In this document: piece by piece, positions 49,596 through 55,960 of the stretch
How positions within the stretch are numbered: the stretch's first letter is position 1
Layout of the letters: every line of letters begins with the position of its first letter
Assembly: GCA_028284625.1 (NCBI GenBank)
Contig: JANQRH010000008.1
Span: 227,441 to 291,440, forward strand
DNA: 64,000 nucleotides
Direction: 5' to 3'
From: Afifellaceae bacterium
GTDB lineage: Bacteria > Pseudomonadota > Alphaproteobacteria > Rhizobiales > Afifellaceae
Program-made: the position numbers and the translations under genes
Notes under the pieces: generated by a model
The model's input: the letters and a program-made list of their open reading frames with translations, nothing else
Told to the model about the DNA's origin: nothing
The model's database searches: none

Positions 49596-51170
49596 TTAGC
49601 CGAAGGCTGTGTCCGCAACAGCGAAGATTTCGTGTTCGTCGCGGACGTTGCGCAATTTGCGCACGCCAAGGGAGCTGAGGTTAGCCGGCGCGCGGCCGGC
49701 GATCTCACCTGAAAGCAGCAGAGACTGGCCGAGCTCCTTGCATAACGCGCTAAGCCTGGCGGCGACGTTTGCGGCTTGACCTGTGACCGTGAAATCAAGC
49801 CGTCGCGAAGCGCCGACATTGCCGTACATGAGGTCACCGAAATGCACGCCGATGGCGCATTGGACCGAAATCCCGTCGGCGCGCGGCGGAACGGCCGCGA
49901 TTTCGGCAATGATGGCTTCGGCTGCGGCGCGCGCCTTGCTGCAGGCGGAGCAAATGGCATCCTCGCTGGCCTCGGCGTCTTCCAGCGGAAAGATCGCCAG
50001 CACTGCGTCGCCGATGAATTTCAGCACCTCGCCACCACCGGCAAGTACCGGCTCCACTGTGCGCTCAAAGAAGTCGTTGAGGAGCTCCAGATAGTTTTGG
50101 CGCGATAGGGCTTCAGCCAGGGACGTGGAGTCGCGAAGGTCGCAATAGAGCACCGCAGCCCGGATCACCTGACCTGCTCCGCGTTGCGTCCGCCCACCGA
50201 GGACCTGTCGGCCGGTGCGTTCACCGAGATAAGTGTCGAATAGCACGGAGGCGTCGCGCCTCAGTGTCATCACCTCATAGAAGCGACCCAGTACGGGAAA
50301 CGATTCAAACGCCTGACCGAGTTGGGCGGTGGTGAAGCCGTCCGGATGGTCGGTGGCCATGGTCATGGTTTGAAAGCGGCCATCGGAGAAGGGCAGCGGA
50401 ATGGCGACGTAGTCGGTTCCACCGCTGGCGCGAAGCTGTTCAAGGATCGGGAAGCGAAACTCCGGTTCCTCGACGTCCAAACGCTGGCGAACGCCGCCGA
50501 GGCCTTCGCTGACAAAGCGAACCGGACTGTTGCGGTAGGCGGGGCTTTGCAGGATGCCGTGCGGCGTGTCGCTTTCCTCCACCACGCCGGTGTCGCGCGT
50601 CCACGAGAAGCGTTGGCCAGCTATCTCCGGGTGGAGCGTCCAAAGATTGATTGTGAAGCGCCAAAGCGGAACGCCGGCGGCGAGGAGTTGTTTAGCAAAC
50701 TCTGCTGTCAGCTCGGCGGGCGTCTTGCATTGCCACGCCTTCAGCATCAGCCAATCGACCAGCGGCCGCCCGCCCACGAACTCAACCGGGGCCGGCGGCA
50801 GTGGCGGCTCTGCATGGACTTCAGTGAAGCGGTTATCGAAGGTGACATGACCGCCTACGCCTGCCGCTTCCGACAACGGCTTTTCGTAGCTCCAAGCTGC
50901 GTTTTCAATCGTGCCGCCCGGGAGCGTGAGGTGCCAGTGGCTCGCAGTGCCCTTGAAGGGACAGAACGTGCGGTAGTCAGAGGCAACGAGGAGGCCGTCC
51001 GCCACGTCAGATTTGGGGACGTAATAAATCGGAGGAAAATAGGTTTCGCTCAGCAGCATTGCGGCCGAACTGTCGGCGATCGTTTGGCCACCAGCGGTTA
51101 CGCGCACGCGCCGCTCTGCCGGTTTGATGGCGATGCGGTAGTTCTGGTCGTGCTCGCTCGCTCGCTGCAC
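49596..51170 (-). CDS. DUF427 domain - regulatory domain - class III adenylate/guanylate cyclase fusion protein
   Basis: The N-terminus carries DUF427-like motifs (YYVPKSDV, FCPFKGTASHW, AAWSYE). The C-terminal cyclase carries VLYCDLRDST, GDAVLAIFP, IGVHFGDLMYGNVG and FTVTGQAANVAARL. Confidence 0.75.
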   Translation of the reverse strand: MQRASEHDQNYRIAIKPAERRVRVTAGGQTIADSSAAMLLSETYFPPIYYVPKSDVADGLLVASDYRTFCPFKGTASHWHLTLPGGTIENAAWSYEKPLSEAAGVGGHVTFDNRFTEVHAEPPLPPAPVEFVGGRPLVDWLMLKAWQCKTPAELTAEFAKQLLAAGVPLWRFTINLWTLHPEIAGQRFSWTRDTGVVEESDTPHGILQSPAYRNSPVRFVSEGLGGVRQRLDVEEPEFRFPILEQLRASGGTDYVAIPLPFSDGRFQTMTMATDHPDGFTTAQLGQAFESFPVLGRFYEVMTLRRDASVLFDTYLGERTGRQVLGGRTQRGAGQVIRAAVLYCDLRDSTSLAEALSRQNYLELLNDFFERTVEPVLAGGGEVLKFIGDAVLAIFPLEDAEASEDAICSACSKARAAAEAIIAEIAAVPPRADGISVQCAIGVHFGDLMYGNVGASRRLDFTVTGQAANVAARLSALCKELGQSLLLSGEIAGRAPANLSSLGVRKLRNVRDEHEIFAVADTAFG

Positions 51171-51334
51171 GTTGTCCTCAGCCGTCGTCGGAAGCTGATG
51201 CGCTATATGGCGCGCTTCACTGAGATTCCCAACAGAATCTCAACCGATCCGCGACAATCCGACGGAAGCTTTAAGGTTAAGCCCCCAGTTCGTTTGATTA
51301 TTTCGGAAGGAGATGGCTAACCAAAGCAATCCGT

Positions 51335-52597
51335 ATGCGGCGGAGGTGCGACCTGGTGAAGAGCTCTCAACAGGTGGATTGCTTCAATTCCCGACCAGCT
51401 GTGCTGCTGTTGGGAAACTATCGGCCAACATTGGCGATTGCGCGCGCGCTTCAGCCGCTCGGATATTCTATCGTGGTGGCGGGTGAAGGCGGAGAGGGCG
51501 CAGCGGAGCATTCCCGCCACGTCGATCGCATCATGCCGGCCGGCGACCTTGAACGCGGCGCCCTGCCGGCTTGGCTTACCGACGGCGCGAAGCTGTCGAA
51601 GGCTGGCATCGACATGGTGATTCCCGTGACGGAGGCCGCCTCGCGCAAACTCGCAGCAAACGCGTCATCTCTCAGCGCCGATATCACATGGGTGACGCCG
51701 TCGGCGGAGGCCGTGCAGGCGTGCCTCGACAAGCCGGGCATGTTTGCCCGCTGCCAATCGCTGGGCGTACCCACGGAGCCGTTCGCCAACACGACCAGCC
51801 GAGACCTTTCGGACGCAATCGACTCCGTCGGCCTGCCATGCGTCATACGTCCGTTGGATTCTACGCGCCGCATCGGCGGCGAGAAGGCGATCTTCGTTGA
51901 GACGCGCGCCGACCTTGAGGCCGAGGCGCTCAACGCGTTGCCGCCGAGCGAGCCGCTGGTCTTGCAGCGCAAGGCCTCCGGCACGCGCCACAATCTTTAT
52001 TTCGCCTCCGCTGAAGGCCGGTTGGTGGGTGTCTGCGAGGCGCGCATCGACCGCACTGACCGGGCGGATGGAAGCGGGTTGGCGGTTGAGGGCGTCACGC
52101 TTGCGCCCAACGCCGATCTCGTCCGTTGGACAGAGGCGCTGACGCAGTCGCTCGCCTATACCGGGATCGGCTGTGCGCAGTTTCTCGTCGATGCCCGGTC
52201 GGGCGCGACCATGTTTCTGGAAATCAATCCGCGCGTTCCCGGCAACCACGCGATTGCCGAAGCGGCCGGTCTGCCTCTGGCGCGGCTGAGTGTCGATCTG
52301 GCGAGCGGGCGGGCCATGCCGGAGGAGCCGATCGTTGGCCGGGCCGGCCTGCGCTTTGCGTGGACTTATGGCGATCTGCGTGGCTTGCGCGAAGCCATCC
52401 GCAGCCGAAGCATCACCTTCGGTGCGGCGCTCACCTGGCTTGCACGGGCCGGTGCCATGGCGCTTAAGGCCGATATTCACATGACCTGGTCTTGGTCAGA
52501 CCCGCGGCCGACTTTGGTGTTGTTTGCGCGGCAATTGGGCGGCTTGCGGCTGATGTCGCGTCGCAGGGCGGCGCTCATCATGGATGGGGCTCCCTGA
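51335..52597 (+). CDS. ATP-grasp domain protein (carboxylate-amine ligase-like)
   Basis: ATP-grasp hallmarks: PCVIRPLDS, LVLQRKASG and LEINPRVPGNH (E-x-N-x-R). Confidence 0.7.
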   Translation: MRRRCDLVKSSQQVDCFNSRPAVLLLGNYRPTLAIARALQPLGYSIVVAGEGGEGAAEHSRHVDRIMPAGDLERGALPAWLTDGAKLSKAGIDMVIPVTEAASRKLAANASSLSADITWVTPSAEAVQACLDKPGMFARCQSLGVPTEPFANTTSRDLSDAIDSVGLPCVIRPLDSTRRIGGEKAIFVETRADLEAEALNALPPSEPLVLQRKASGTRHNLYFASAEGRLVGVCEARIDRTDRADGSGLAVEGVTLAPNADLVRWTEALTQSLAYTGIGCAQFLVDARSGATMFLEINPRVPGNHAIAEAAGLPLARLSVDLASGRAMPEEPIVGRAGLRFAWTYGDLRGLREAIRSRSITFGAALTWLARAGAMALKADIHMTWSWSDPRPTLVLFARQLGGLRLMSRRRAALIMDGAP

Positions 52598-52599
52598 CC

Positions 52600-53715
52600 A
52601 TGGCCACGGCAACCGCTCCAGCGCTGGTCAGCGACACGTACGACCTGGCGATTCCGGCTGCCAGAGCCGGCGTTGCGCTGACGATCGTGCCGCACGAGAC
52701 CTGGGATAGTGAGCTCTCGCAATTTGCCGACGCAAGCTACGACCAGACGGCTGCCTTCGCGGCGGCCAAGCGGGGCAGTGAGCGCGTGGTTACGTGCCAG
52801 GTTCACCAGCGCGGCACCCTTATCGGCGGTGCGGTGGCGACGCGGTTTGCTCTGCCTGGGCTCCGGACCGGCCTTTACTACGTCAAGTTCGGTCCGGTGT
52901 GGCGTCGCGCCGGCGAAGCGGAATCGTGGACGACCTACACGCACGTTGTCCGCGCCTTGCGCCGTGAGTTTTGCGATCGGCGCGGCAGCCTTCTGACCAT
53001 TGTGCCGCGGCCGAATCCCGAATTTGCTTCTCGCGAAGCGGAGATTCTGGAAGCAGAAGGGTTCAATCGCGATCTCTACGCACCCGACCCCAACCGGTAT
53101 CTGGTCGATCTCAAAGGCCCGCTCGATGCGGCTGCCGGGTTTTCGCAGAAATGGCGGTACAATCTCAAACGCGCTCGCAAGACCGGGCTCAAAGTCGTCG
53201 AGCACGAGGTGAGTGAGGCATACGCGACCTTTGCCGAGTTGCATCGCGTCATGGTGGAGCGGAAGCGCTTTCAGTGTGATGACGCTGTCGAGGCCGTGCC
53301 GCAGCTCGCAGACGTTCTGCCGCGTGCAATGTCTCCCAAGATCTATCTCGCCTATGAGGGTGATCGTGCGGTCGCGGGCGCCGTTATCGGCACGCATGGC
53401 GACATGGCGTGCTACCTCTACGGCGCAAGCAGCGAGGGCGGCGCGGCGCGCAACGCCGGATACCTCCTGCAATGGCATATCATCGAGCAGCTCCGGCAAG
53501 GCGAGCAGCGCTGGTACGATCTCGGCGGTGAAGCGCTCGACCCGGGGCTCCGGCAGTTCAAGCGCGGCCTGGTCGGCCGGCAGGGCGAGATCTTCGCAAC
53601 GCCGGGCGAGTTCAGTTGCTGGACAAGCCCGGTGGCGCGGATGTTCGGCGTCGCGACCTATGCAGCGCGGAGCGCGCGCCTGGCGATGCGGAGCCTTCCA
53701 GGCCGCGGGAAATGA
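52600..53715 (+). CDS. FemAB-family / GNAT-fold aminoacyl(peptidyl)transferase-like protein; track over-extends to 52492
   Basis: The ATG at 52600 lies 2 nt after the upstream stop. FemAB-like features include QKWRYNLKRARKTGLKV, YLAYEGDRAVAGAV and YLYGASS..G....AGYLLQW. Confidence 0.65.
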   Translation: MATATAPALVSDTYDLAIPAARAGVALTIVPHETWDSELSQFADASYDQTAAFAAAKRGSERVVTCQVHQRGTLIGGAVATRFALPGLRTGLYYVKFGPVWRRAGEAESWTTYTHVVRALRREFCDRRGSLLTIVPRPNPEFASREAEILEAEGFNRDLYAPDPNRYLVDLKGPLDAAAGFSQKWRYNLKRARKTGLKVVEHEVSEAYATFAELHRVMVERKRFQCDDAVEAVPQLADVLPRAMSPKIYLAYEGDRAVAGAVIGTHGDMACYLYGASSEGGAARNAGYLLQWHIIEQLRQGEQRWYDLGGEALDPGLRQFKRGLVGRQGEIFATPGEFSCWTSPVARMFGVATYAARSARLAMRSLPGRGK

Positions 53716-55034
53716 ACGGGCTGAAGTCCATCTGGCATCTCGGCAGCCGCGCCGGCTCGCTCTTTTCAGCACGCATGGCCGCGGCCCTGTTTGGAGTCGG
53801 CGTTCAGCTGCTGCTTGCCCGGCTGCTCGGCCCGGAACAGCTCGGTCAGTTCTTTCTTGCGACGAGCCTGGCGACGGTCGGTGCCGTCGTAGCCGCCGGC
53901 GGCTACCCCAACATCGTCCTCAAGATGGTCGCGATGAGCCGCAATGGCGAGTTTCGCGGACGCGCGCTGGCGCGCGTTGCCCTCATCGACAGCGCTGCCG
54001 TCGGCTTTGCGATCGCCATTGTCATGGCGGCCGCTGCCTTATTGTTGTCCGGTCACGCGGCGCTTCTGGCGGCAGCGATTGCGGTTCCGGTGATCGCCTT
54101 CGGCCGGTTGCTGAGCGCCTATGCGATGGCGCGGCGGCACCCGATGATCGCCAATTTGCCGGATCTCTTGACCCGGCCGGTCGTGTTGGCGTCGGGGCTG
54201 GTGGTGCTGCTTCTCACTGGCGTGCGCATCGACGCGACGGACGCCGTGTGGCTCTTCACCGTCGGCGCTGTGCTGACGCTCCTACTGCTGGCGGTTAGCG
54301 TGGTGCGCGCCGGTATCCTGCCGCGCGTTGAGCCCCGCGTCGACCGACGGATACGTCGCCGGTTGCGGCTGACGGCGCTGCCGCTCGTCAGCGTGTCGGT
54401 GCTGTCGGCGTTCTTCGGTGATCTCGCCATCATTGTCTCAAGCCTGTTCCTGTCGCCGGCGGCGCTGGGCGTCTTTGCGCTGTCGCTGAAGATCGCGCTT
54501 CTCGTCGGGTTCGCCATCCAGGCGCTTTATCAGATCGAACTCCCACGCATCGCGGCTGCTCATGGGCGGGCGCTCGGCGATGAGGTCAGGCTCATCATCG
54601 GCCGGCTCAACCGGACTGCCGTTCTGGCAACGGGAGGCGCAGCACTCGTTCTGGCGCCGCTCGCGCCGCAGGTGCTGGCGTTGTTCGGCGATGCCTTTGT
54701 TGCCGGTGCGCCGGTGCTCGCCATCCTTGTCGTCGTGCAGGTCGGGCGCGCGTGCTGTGGCCCGTCCGTCCAGGCCCTGACGCTTCTGTCGGCGCAGCGG
54801 ACGAGCAGCCTCCTGTCGCTCGTGTCTGCGCTGGTGCTGCTTGCCGGCTGCGCTGTGCTCGCCGTCAGTTTCGGTCCAACCGGCGCAGCAATAGCAACGG
54901 GTGTTTCCATGCTGACTTGGTACGGGCTTGCTGCCCATTTCGCCGCGCGCTACGGGCTGGCCACCTTTGGCCTCGGCATTGCGCATAACGAGATCGTCCC
55001 ATGGCGCGCTGCGCTCCGCTGGAGGTCACCATGA
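53712..55034 (+). CDS. polysaccharide/oligosaccharide flippase-like membrane protein (MOP/Wzx superfamily); track over-extends to 53616
   Basis: ATGA start/stop overlap at 53712-53715. The 440-aa protein has about 12 TM segments, and its N-terminus is typical of polysaccharide biosynthesis proteins (LFSARMAAALFGVGVQLLLARLLGPEQLGQF). Confidence 0.65.
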   Translation: MNGLKSIWHLGSRAGSLFSARMAAALFGVGVQLLLARLLGPEQLGQFFLATSLATVGAVVAAGGYPNIVLKMVAMSRNGEFRGRALARVALIDSAAVGFAIAIVMAAAALLLSGHAALLAAAIAVPVIAFGRLLSAYAMARRHPMIANLPDLLTRPVVLASGLVVLLLTGVRIDATDAVWLFTVGAVLTLLLLAVSVVRAGILPRVEPRVDRRIRRRLRLTALPLVSVSVLSAFFGDLAIIVSSLFLSPAALGVFALSLKIALLVGFAIQALYQIELPRIAAAHGRALGDEVRLIIGRLNRTAVLATGGAALVLAPLAPQVLALFGDAFVAGAPVLAILVVVQVGRACCGPSVQALTLLSAQRTSSLLSLVSALVLLAGCAVLAVSFGPTGAAIATGVSMLTWYGLAAHFAARYGLATFGLGIAHNEIVPWRAALRWRSP

Positions 55035-55726
55035 GCTATCCTGGAACCATCCGGACATCCGCAAGCGCCACGACCCCGGATCGCGCGGGCGGTTCAGCTC
55101 AACAAACCGATCGGCCGGCCATGGGTATCGCGATTGCAGTCGGGGTCGGTTTCACGGCCTCGGTCGTTGCGGTCGCCATCGGGTTTGCGCATCTGAAGGG
55201 CATCAGCGTCGCCAATCTGACGCGCGACCCCGCAGCGGTTCTCGGCGGGCCTGCCTATATCGGCTTTGCCTCGCATACAGGCGTGGTGTTGTGGATCGCC
55301 GCGTCGGCCATTGCCTTCTTCGGCGGTCTCCTGGCGTCACAGATGCGTCTGCCGAATAACCGGTTCCTCTATGTCGCTGGTGCTCTGTCGCTGCTTCTTG
55401 GCCTCGACGATCTCATGATGCTGCATGAGGACATCCTGCCGCGTATCGGTATTCCTCAGATGCTGGTGCTTCTGGCTTATGCCAGCTTCGCAATGGTGTT
55501 TGTCTTGCGCTGCTACCGGGAGATTCTGTCGGGGTCGTATGTCCTTTTCTCGCTGGCCGCACTTTGCCTCGGCACATCGTTGCTGATTGATTTGGCGCTC
55601 CCCTACAGCGAACTGGAAGCTGCGGTTGAGGATTGCGCCAAGCTGTTCGGCATCACGTTCTGGTTCCTCTATATCTTGAGCGAAACTACGGCGCTGGTGC
55701 GCCGGGTCCCCAGCGCACGCCAATAA
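55031..55726 (+). CDS. integral membrane protein, unknown function
   Basis: ATGA start/stop overlap at 55031-55034. About 6 TM segments. No family recognised. Confidence 0.55.
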   Translation: MSYPGTIRTSASATTPDRAGGSAQQTDRPAMGIAIAVGVGFTASVVAVAIGFAHLKGISVANLTRDPAAVLGGPAYIGFASHTGVVLWIAASAIAFFGGLLASQMRLPNNRFLYVAGALSLLLGLDDLMMLHEDILPRIGIPQMLVLLAYASFAMVFVLRCYREILSGSYVLFSLAALCLGTSLLIDLALPYSELEAAVEDCAKLFGITFWFLYILSETTALVRRVPSARQ

Positions 55727-55960
55727 CCGGCGGGCCGGCGCCGGACGCCTCAGACAGGTTGCGCCGCGGAAAATTGCGCCGTCGGCGGCCGGCTCTCAGC
55801 CCATGCGTGTGCGGTGCGTTGTGGGTGCTGTCCTTCAGCTCCCCGCAAGAAAGCGGCCATTTTCGGCGATTGCGTTGCATCCGACCGGTCGGCCTGTTAC
55901 TATTTTAGTGTATTCACACAAATAAGAACATTTGAGCTTCACAACCCAAGCTAGGGCGAC

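Follow-up and report, generated by a model that had tools for sequence, protein, structure and literature searches.

The stretch of DNA analyzed here (the window) comprises 64,000 nucleotides of contig JANQRH010000008.1 from an Afifellaceae bacterium (assembly GCA_028284625.1). Positions 51,335 to 55,726 contain four consecutive genes, here denoted g1 to g4, which are predicted to encode an ATP-grasp ligase, a FemX-type transferase, a Wzx-type flippase and a membrane protein with six transmembrane (TM) segments. The results described below indicate that these genes most likely form a self-contained, portable and horizontally mobile cassette that recurs in scattered bacteria. We propose, with a probability of about one half, that this cassette decorates a lipid-linked envelope glycan with an amino acid or peptide and flips the product. 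Two aspects set the locus apart. First, the cassette is minimal and is devoid of genes for a glycan backbone. Second, its fourth component comes from a large unannotated membrane family with sharply conserved motifs assigned to the outer face. No characterized member was found among modules that combine an ATP-grasp enzyme, a Fem-like transferase and a flippase.

Organization of the operon

The features of the locus are as follows.

51255..51355, + strand: conserved leader or promoter region 5′ of g1, nearly identical in the window and in a sister species
51356..52597, + strand: g1, ATP-grasp carboxylate-amine ligase, 413 aa when started at GTG (PF02786, fold, invariant residues)
52600..53715, + strand: g2, predicted FemX-type double-GNAT aminoacyl transferase, 371 aa (PF13480, PF02388, alignment with FemX)
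53712..55034, + strand: g3, predicted divergent PST/Wzx-type flippase of the MOP superfamily, 440 aa (family profile against 9g95)
55031..55726, + strand: g4, predicted 6-TM membrane protein of an unannotated family, 231 aa (profile, structural model, conservation)

The four open reading frames are located on the + strand at 51335-52597, 52600-53715, 53712-55034 and 55031-55726. The first-pass annotation, made from the sequence alone, had described them as an operon with a 2-nt gap and two ATGA overlaps, and both the coordinates and the letters of the junctions were confirmed. Thus, g1 and g2 meet at cccTGAccATG (52595-52602), g2 and g3 overlap in gaaATGAac (ATGA at 53712-53715), and g3 and g4 overlap in accATGAgc (ATGA at 55031-55034), with a GGAGG box positioned 5 nt upstream of the g4 ATG. 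Its assignment of the four products to ATP-grasp, FemAB-like, MOP/Wzx-type and 6-TM proteins also holds, being backed by PF02786 for g1, PF13480 and PF02388 for g2, the family profile for g3, and a structural model together with hydropathy for g4. The lengths of g2, g3 and g4 (371, 440 and 231 aa) agree with those of their homologues (371-372, 440 and 226-231 aa, respectively), and in a copy on an ocean-metagenome contig (L011) each of the three junctions is a 4-nt overlap. The overlapping stop and start codons suggest that the genes form an operon and are co-transcribed. Overlaps of 4 nt are ordinary in bacterial operons, however, and the stoichiometric co-production that had been deduced from the tight coupling was an over-reading, since overlaps alone do not show it.

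The true start of g1 is probably the GTG at 51356 (413 aa) and not the ATG at 51335 (420 aa). This is because a 1-nt indel lies between these two codons in the sister species (genome G002, whose copy is locus L005; the genome of the window is G000), similarity between the two g1 proteins starts only at residue 7, and the GTG stands 9 nt after a GGAGG box.

The ATP-grasp ligase g1

g1 is an intact ATP-grasp enzyme that retains the catalytic residues and the fold. It matches PF02786 (CPSase_L_D2) with 43.4 bits (cut-off 19.8), and its AlphaFold2 (AF2) model, with a predicted local distance difference test score (pLDDT) of 89, adopts the three-domain ATP-grasp fold. A Foldseek search with this model returned biotin carboxylase, PurK, PurT and carbamoyl phosphate synthetase with a probability of 1.0 and TM-scores of 0.55-0.60. 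Across 23 homologues the ATP/Mg-binding residues K126, E289, N291 and R293 do not vary, and the E-x-N-x-R motif is present as FLEINPR. The best sequence matches are generic ones, CPSase_L_D2 and PRK06849. Past the catalytic core, the protein continues into helices at its C-terminus, the last stretch of which is basic and hydrophobic and may mediate membrane association.

The glucuronamide-forming enzymes of the Campylobacter jejuni capsule are ATP-grasp amidoligases that decorate a surface glycan. g1 would resemble these enzymes, and also the "sugar-transfer associated ATP-grasp" class, as an amide-forming ATP-grasp enzyme found in envelope-glycan contexts. It differs from these glycan-decorating ATP-grasps in that its matches are generic and the structures closest to it are those of carboxylases, PurK and PurT. 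Amidated glucuronate is described in a published report (PMC11800379). The g1-type relative in locus L050 has a weak match to ATPgrasp_ST, and more distant g1-like genes that stand alone (L105-L107) have the unrelated neighbors TldD, PrpF, DUF6065 and radical SAM.

The transferase g2 and the flippase g3

The g2 protein matches PF13480 (FemAB/Acetyltransf_6) with 51 bits and PF02388 with 48 bits (cut-off 24). A family profile built from 29 homologues aligned with Staphylococcus aureus FemX (6SNR; E 5e-17), and also with Weissella FemX, where the alignment covers residues 43-309 and both GNAT domains (E 1e-12). Residues F320-K321 of g2 are invariant in the 29 homologues and align exactly with F304-K305 of FemX. 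Lys305 is the catalytic residue of FemX, and the equivalent Phe-Lys pair is essential in the tRNA-dependent enzyme DhpH-C (PMC12945691). By these alignments, g2 is a FemX-type double-GNAT protein that keeps the catalytic Phe-Lys pair.

g2 is thus similar to FemX/FemABX proteins (Weissella viridescens 1NE9/4II9; S. aureus 6SNR) in both GNAT domains, in PF02388 and in Phe-Lys, but it shares only ∼20% identity with FemX and scores 21 bits against the NCBIfam FemX equivalog NF047883, far under its cut-off of 500. Unlike FemX, g2 is a rare accessory gene of Gram-negative alphaproteobacteria and is linked to a Wzx-like flippase and not to mur genes. Nor does it belong to the XrtA/PEP-CTERM-associated FemAB family TIGR03019 (16.7 bits; cut-off 260.35), which removes a PEP-CTERM locus, the explanation that the first-pass annotation had itself named as fatal to its proposal. 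The C-terminal lysylphosphatidylglycerol synthase domain of MprF was absent from the Pfam matches of g2 at E ≤ 0.1.

A functional parallel may be found in Caulobacter crescentus, in which the FemX-like GNAT protein HfsK acts with the deacetylase HfsH on the holdfast polysaccharide (PMC5362036). By its published description HfsK is, like g2, an alphaproteobacterial FemX-like double-GNAT protein, and its proposed activity is the acylation of amines carried by a surface polysaccharide (PMC5362036). The pairing of HfsK with HfsH is mirrored in locus L050, where a CE4 deacetylase adjoins g1 and g4. The two systems also differ, as the HfsK paper (PMC5362036) describes no ATP-grasp, dedicated flippase or g4-type partner for HfsK. 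Moreover, HfsK is under the control of cyclic di-GMP (c-di-GMP), whereas the cyclase encoded next to the cassette in the window belongs to class III (cAMP/cGMP) and does not accompany the cassette elsewhere. In genome G031 a g2+g3 pair (L007, 14324-17206) lies ∼3 kb from a gene for a CHASE2-GGDEF-EAL protein. This proximity deserves mention because FemX-like HfsK binds c-di-GMP, but it is probably coincidental.

Identification of g3 relied on its family. The g3 protein alone gave no Pfam match at E 0.1 (hmmscan), a six-frame search gave 22.5 bits against PF01943, under the cut-off of 28.2, and the protein has a weak match to the NCBIfam model WZX_like. PF01943 (Polysacc_synt) is matched, however, by the 92% identical orthologue of g3 and by 25 of 32 homologues. 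The homologues carry PF01943 or PF13440, and the MatE model is also matched by 8 of the 32. Among solved structures the g3 profile agreed best with the lipid III flippase WzxE (9g95), with positions 12-420 aligned on 2-408 (E 2e-11), followed by an end-to-end alignment with a teichoic-acid subunit flippase (9xzn; E 2.7e-10). Matches to MATE transporters had E values of 4.5e-10 and weaker, and those to MurJ had E values of 1e-3 and 0.04. From these profile comparisons, g3 is classified as a divergent Wzx-type PST flippase of the MOP superfamily. It resembles the Wzx proteins of the PST family (Escherichia coli WzxE, 9g95; 9xzn) in the end-to-end alignment of its family profile, and differs from them in that g3 itself is under the Pfam cut-off and is located outside any repeat-unit assembly locus.

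The g4 family

The earlier statement that the fourth protein matches nothing recognizable stands as far as annotation and structures are concerned: no Pfam or NCBIfam match was obtained for g4, including none in Pfam to VanZ, DUF2238 or DUF2279, and a fold search of the PDB with its model gave nothing below E 0.38. It does not stand as regards relatives, as g4 is a member of a very large unannotated family. A word-indexed search retrieved only ten relatives, whereas a profile search of 1.84 billion representatives retrieved at least 4,241 clusters (counted at 50% identity) at E ≤ 1e-3, of which 1,682 were found at E ≤ 1e-30. When ten family members were compared with Pfam, seven had no match and three had chance-level matches only (E ≥ 0.088).

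The AF2 model of g4 (pLDDT 74) contains six long helices, and hydropathy also predicts six TM segments. In 89 members from many phyla, residues D126, D127, H132, E200 and K204 are invariant, and conservation reaches at least 97% at D66, E133 and D187. Loop charges agree with the positive-inside rule: K and R abound in the even-numbered loops, and those with odd numbers are acidic. The topology predicted from these charges has the N-terminus inside and the conserved D/E/H cluster at the periplasmic face. Long members of the family are tandem duplications only, and no domain fusions were seen among them; for example, P0134, P0135 and P0177 contain tandem g4 domains in one polypeptide, with the DD..HE and ED..K motifs in each repeat. 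Because the long members are tandem duplications, the working unit of g4 is suggested to be a parallel dimer.

Membership of the VanZ/Lipocone group (bioRxiv 10.1101/2025.01.14.632903) was considered and set aside: hhalign gave a probability of 0.1% against a VanZ set from eight loci of relatives, which is a weak negative given that the VanZ alignment was crude and poor. The likeness between the two is one of concept, as both would be small multi-TM proteins with a polar pocket at the outer face, and of genomic linkage, as both occur with MOP flippases, and VanZ with an ATP-grasp ligase. The motifs of g4 (DD..HE, D, ED..K) and its 6-TM layout differ from the H/E/D four-helix signature of Lipocone proteins.

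The commonest neighbor of g4 is an ATP-grasp gene, found within three genes in 17 of 67 loci. At loci that have g4 without the other cassette genes, GT2/GT4 genes are the commonest neighbors, with a slight enrichment (9 of 138). At locus L010 (7434-9994) the g4 relative P0008 is located between a RimB-like "ATP-dependent zinc protease" (PF05618) and Wzy_C, of the O-antigen ligase/polymerase family.

The sister species has lost g4. Its locus keeps g1, g2 and g3 intact at 92% protein identity, and ∼700 bp covering g4 have been deleted (window 55031-55760 versus L005 6710-6960). A remnant of the first ∼30 nt of g4 is left, in which ATGA has become ATAA, and the deletion joins two CCGGAC-like microrepeats; its boundaries were read by eye, the automatic alignment being imperfect. 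The remnant implies that g4 is ancestral at this locus, and its loss that it is dispensable in at least one species.

A tentative proposal can be made for the family as a whole. According to this, g4 would represent a new and widespread family of dimeric 6-TM enzymes in which D66, DD126-127, HE132-133, D187, ED200-201 and K204 form a metal- or cation-dependent site. It would be a transferase or releasing enzyme of a new kind, acting on flipped polyprenyl units decorated with an amine or peptide, and together with the ATP-grasp enzyme it would be the core of an undescribed Gram-negative envelope-glycolipid pathway. Taken as one joint claim, we consider this unlikely.

Gene orders across lineages

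Synteny was studied in 80 g4-family loci from species representatives and metagenome contigs. The cassette is rare, g2 being present in 4 of 41 related genomes and g1 in 6 of 401 genomes of the class. All four families occur together at 11 loci; at least four gene orders are represented, and the flanking genes are unrelated. The comparison across genomes that had been suggested as a check on the operon therefore upheld the association of the four genes. The arrangements are listed below.

g1-g2-g3-g4: the window; ocean-metagenome contig L011 (EamA and Gfo/Idh flanks); Cohaesibacter L070 and L079
second GNAT-g4-g1-g2-g3: Hyphomicrobiales and Rhizobiaceae, L006/L077, L061, L063 (contig ends after g1), L086, L087 and L095
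g4-g1-g3: L047, L055, L103 and L104
g2 and g1 (g2←g1) divergent from g4 and g3 (g4→g3): Algimonas and Robiginitomaculum, L042-L044 and L074
g1-g4 alone: gammaproteobacterial and other metagenome-assembled genomes (MAGs), L008/L084, L096, L050, L089, L036 and L080

In addition, a g2+g3 pair without g1 or g4 is present at L007 and L015. No further gene family was found to accompany the cassette across lineages.

The five-gene version opens with a second Acetyltransf_6 paralogue of 432-487 aa (L006 11382-12719; L061, L063, L086, L087, L095). This paralogue has Tyr-Lys, and not Phe-Lys, at the position that is catalytic in FemX. A two-component system often adjoins the five-gene version (L006, L095).

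Glycan context and proposed mechanism

The link between the cassette and glycans is seen in other lineages. A WecG/TagA gene adjoins cassette genes in L043, L050 and L089, and in L043 it is in line with g2 and g1. The clearest predicted glycan-assembly context of the g1/g4 pair is the operon of the MAG loci L050 (1074-8621) and L089, which contains genes for a GT4 glycosyltransferase, a CE4 polysaccharide deacetylase, an unknown protein of 317 aa, another GT4 glycosyltransferase and WecG/TagA, followed by g1 and g4. The host genome itself has two loci in which a priming transferase is encoded beside a Wzy_C gene (contigs 13 and 20), and two further PST flippases outside the cassette. Lipid-linked glycan units would therefore be available in trans. 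Exopolysaccharides decorated with amino acids are on record from marine sources (PMC4663550). Together, these results argue for the lipid-linked-glycan pathway that the first-pass annotation had put forward, in that the best solved relative of the g3 profile is WzxE and genes for WecG/TagA, GT4 and CE4 stand beside g1 and g4.

We infer the following mechanism; what it acts on, the sequence of its steps, its need for tRNA and the part played by g4 are conjectural. The glycan backbone would be made by genes located elsewhere in the genome. At the cytoplasmic face of the inner membrane, g2 would transfer an aminoacyl group, for which aminoacyl-tRNA is the most likely donor, onto the lipid-linked unit at a free amine. 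The obvious acceptor would be a de-N-acetylated amino sugar, in view of the CE4 neighbor in L050 and the precedent of HfsH and HfsK (PMC5362036). At the same face, g1 would form a second amide bond via an acyl-phosphate intermediate, and this bond would extend or cap the substituent or amidate a carboxylate of the sugar. The decorated unit would then be flipped by g3. Finally, g4 would act at the periplasmic face on the flipped product by transfer, trimming or release from the carrier; alternatively, it could be a membrane partner that docks the ATP-grasp enzyme g1.

Several observations weigh against the proposal that the cassette decorates a lipid-linked envelope glycan. No glycosyltransferase gene lies near it, as had been noted before and as its neighbors in the window confirm, nor does a gene for a priming transferase, polymerase or deacetylase, either here or in most close relatives. 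Likewise, WecG was not found in the host genome. The glycan link consequently rests on distant lineages. Most members of the g4 family stand alone among unrelated neighbors, and the sister species retains g1, g2 and g3 without g4, so that g4, judged from this comparison, is not indispensable. Finally, the fold search with g1 gave generic carboxylase, PurK and PurT matches only and is silent on the substrate.

Alternative readings

One alternative is that the cassette branches a peptidoglycan precursor, in which case g2, like FemX and MurM, would attach an amino acid to lipid II or UDP-MurNAc-pentapeptide at the diamino acid, g1 would add a residue like the ATP-grasp D-aspartate ligase Asl, and g3 would flip the modified lipid II. 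Among solved structures, g2 is indeed closest to 6SNR, a lipid II:glycine glycyltransferase, and to Weissella FemX, and the NCBI annotation of several homologues reads "lipid II:glycine glycyltransferase FemX". The universality of lipid II would account for a cassette without a glycosyltransferase, and MurJ belongs to the MOP flippases. The g3 profile nevertheless prefers the WzxE and teichoic-acid flippases (2e-11, 2.7e-10) over MurJ (1e-3, 0.04), and g2 is far from the FemX equivalog (21 bits versus a cut-off of 500). Moreover, the cassette has the distribution of an accessory element, being rare both among relatives (4 of 41) and in the class (6 of 401 genomes), and its neighbors elsewhere are the glycan genes for WecG, GT4 and CE4, not mur or dcw genes. 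We therefore regard peptidoglycan branching as improbable.

Production of a small soluble peptide or amide, such as an osmolyte, antimetabolite or signal, is likewise a reading to which we attach a low probability. It would require an ATP-grasp enzyme of the L-amino-acid-ligase type and a tRNA-dependent Fem-like transferase, as in pathways of the dehydrophos, pacidamycin and streptothricin type, with export by a MATE-like g3, by a dimeric g4 transporter, or by both. Fem-like GNAT proteins do operate in natural-product pathways (PMC12945691), and the cassette comes without glycan genes. In addition, 8 of the 32 g3 relatives also match MatE, the tandem-duplicated g4 fusions are typical of dimeric transporters, and the conserved minimal g1+g4 pair would suit a synthetase with its exporter. 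However, g3 is of the PST type, as judged from the 25 of 32 homologues that match PF01943, and its best structural relatives flip lipid-linked glycans. The presence of g1 and g4 inside the GT4-CE4-WecG operons of L050 and L089 also argues against a soluble product, for which two exporters would be redundant, and no genes for precursor supply, immunity or regulation accompany the cassette.

The weakest alternative is a split version of MprF, a protein that combines a flippase with a FemX-fold tRNA-dependent synthase: g2 would aminoacylate an amine-bearing head group of a membrane lipid, such as that of phosphatidylethanolamine or an ornithine lipid, g1 would add a second acyl or amino-acid group, g3 would flip the lipid outward and g4 would remodel the head group on the outer leaflet. 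Such a pathway would unite a flippase and a FemX-fold synthase as MprF does, would not need sugar genes, and would suit the conserved polar cluster of g4, predicted to lie at the level of the outer-leaflet head groups, but a Pfam scan of g2 did not return the synthase domain of MprF, PST flippases are not known to move phospholipids, the hhalign value for g4 and VanZ is 0.1%, and the glycosyltransferase associations favor glycans. Even with the comparable head-group chemistry that the Lipocone paper (bioRxiv 10.1101/2025.01.14.632903) proposes for other small TM families, we hold lipid aminoacylation to be highly improbable.

Leader region and neighboring genes

The leader region of ∼100 nt (51255-51355) is nearly 100% identical in the window and the sister species, and thereby exceeds the conservation of the coding regions. 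It has been kept even though different genes flank the locus in the two species and protein identity is no higher than 92%. The region contains no Rfam family and no sigma-70 consensus, and a scan for promoters and terminators gave nothing beyond shuffle expectation. It may be an operator or a 5′ untranslated element.

The neighbors of the cassette in the window are genes for an amidase, a DUF427-cyclase protein and a DeoR regulator, and a sugar ABC operon. The divergent gene for DUF427 and the class III cyclase (49596-51170, - strand) had been taken as a hint of cyclic-nucleotide control. This gene is absent from the sister species (compared with L005 10540-10860), where the 3′ end of the amidase gene is ∼100 nt from the conserved g1 leader; the difference may be due either to an insertion in the genome of the window or to a deletion in that of the sister. 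Neither the 92% identical sister locus nor any further copy of the cassette has the cyclase gene, so that nothing points to cyclic-nucleotide control, and this reading was rejected.

On the other side of the cassette, an AT-rich stretch, TGTTACTATTTTAGTGTATTCACACAAATAAGAACATTT (window 55890-55960), precedes the DeoR gene and is identical in the two species; it is probably the promoter or operator of that gene. Within the genus, the flanking DeoR and sugar-ABC region is limited to these two species.

Implications

The compact four-gene version, with no genes for a glycan backbone, offers a tractable entry point, as it could be transferred to a laboratory strain or cleanly deleted. The g4 protein represents a large, strongly conserved and unannotated membrane family, and its invariant residues are precise targets for mutagenesis. 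If the proposal is true that the cassette decorates a lipid-linked envelope glycan, it would show how bacteria attach short non-ribosomal amino-acid substituents to their surface glycans, which are additions that change the charge of the surface, its phage receptors and adhesion.

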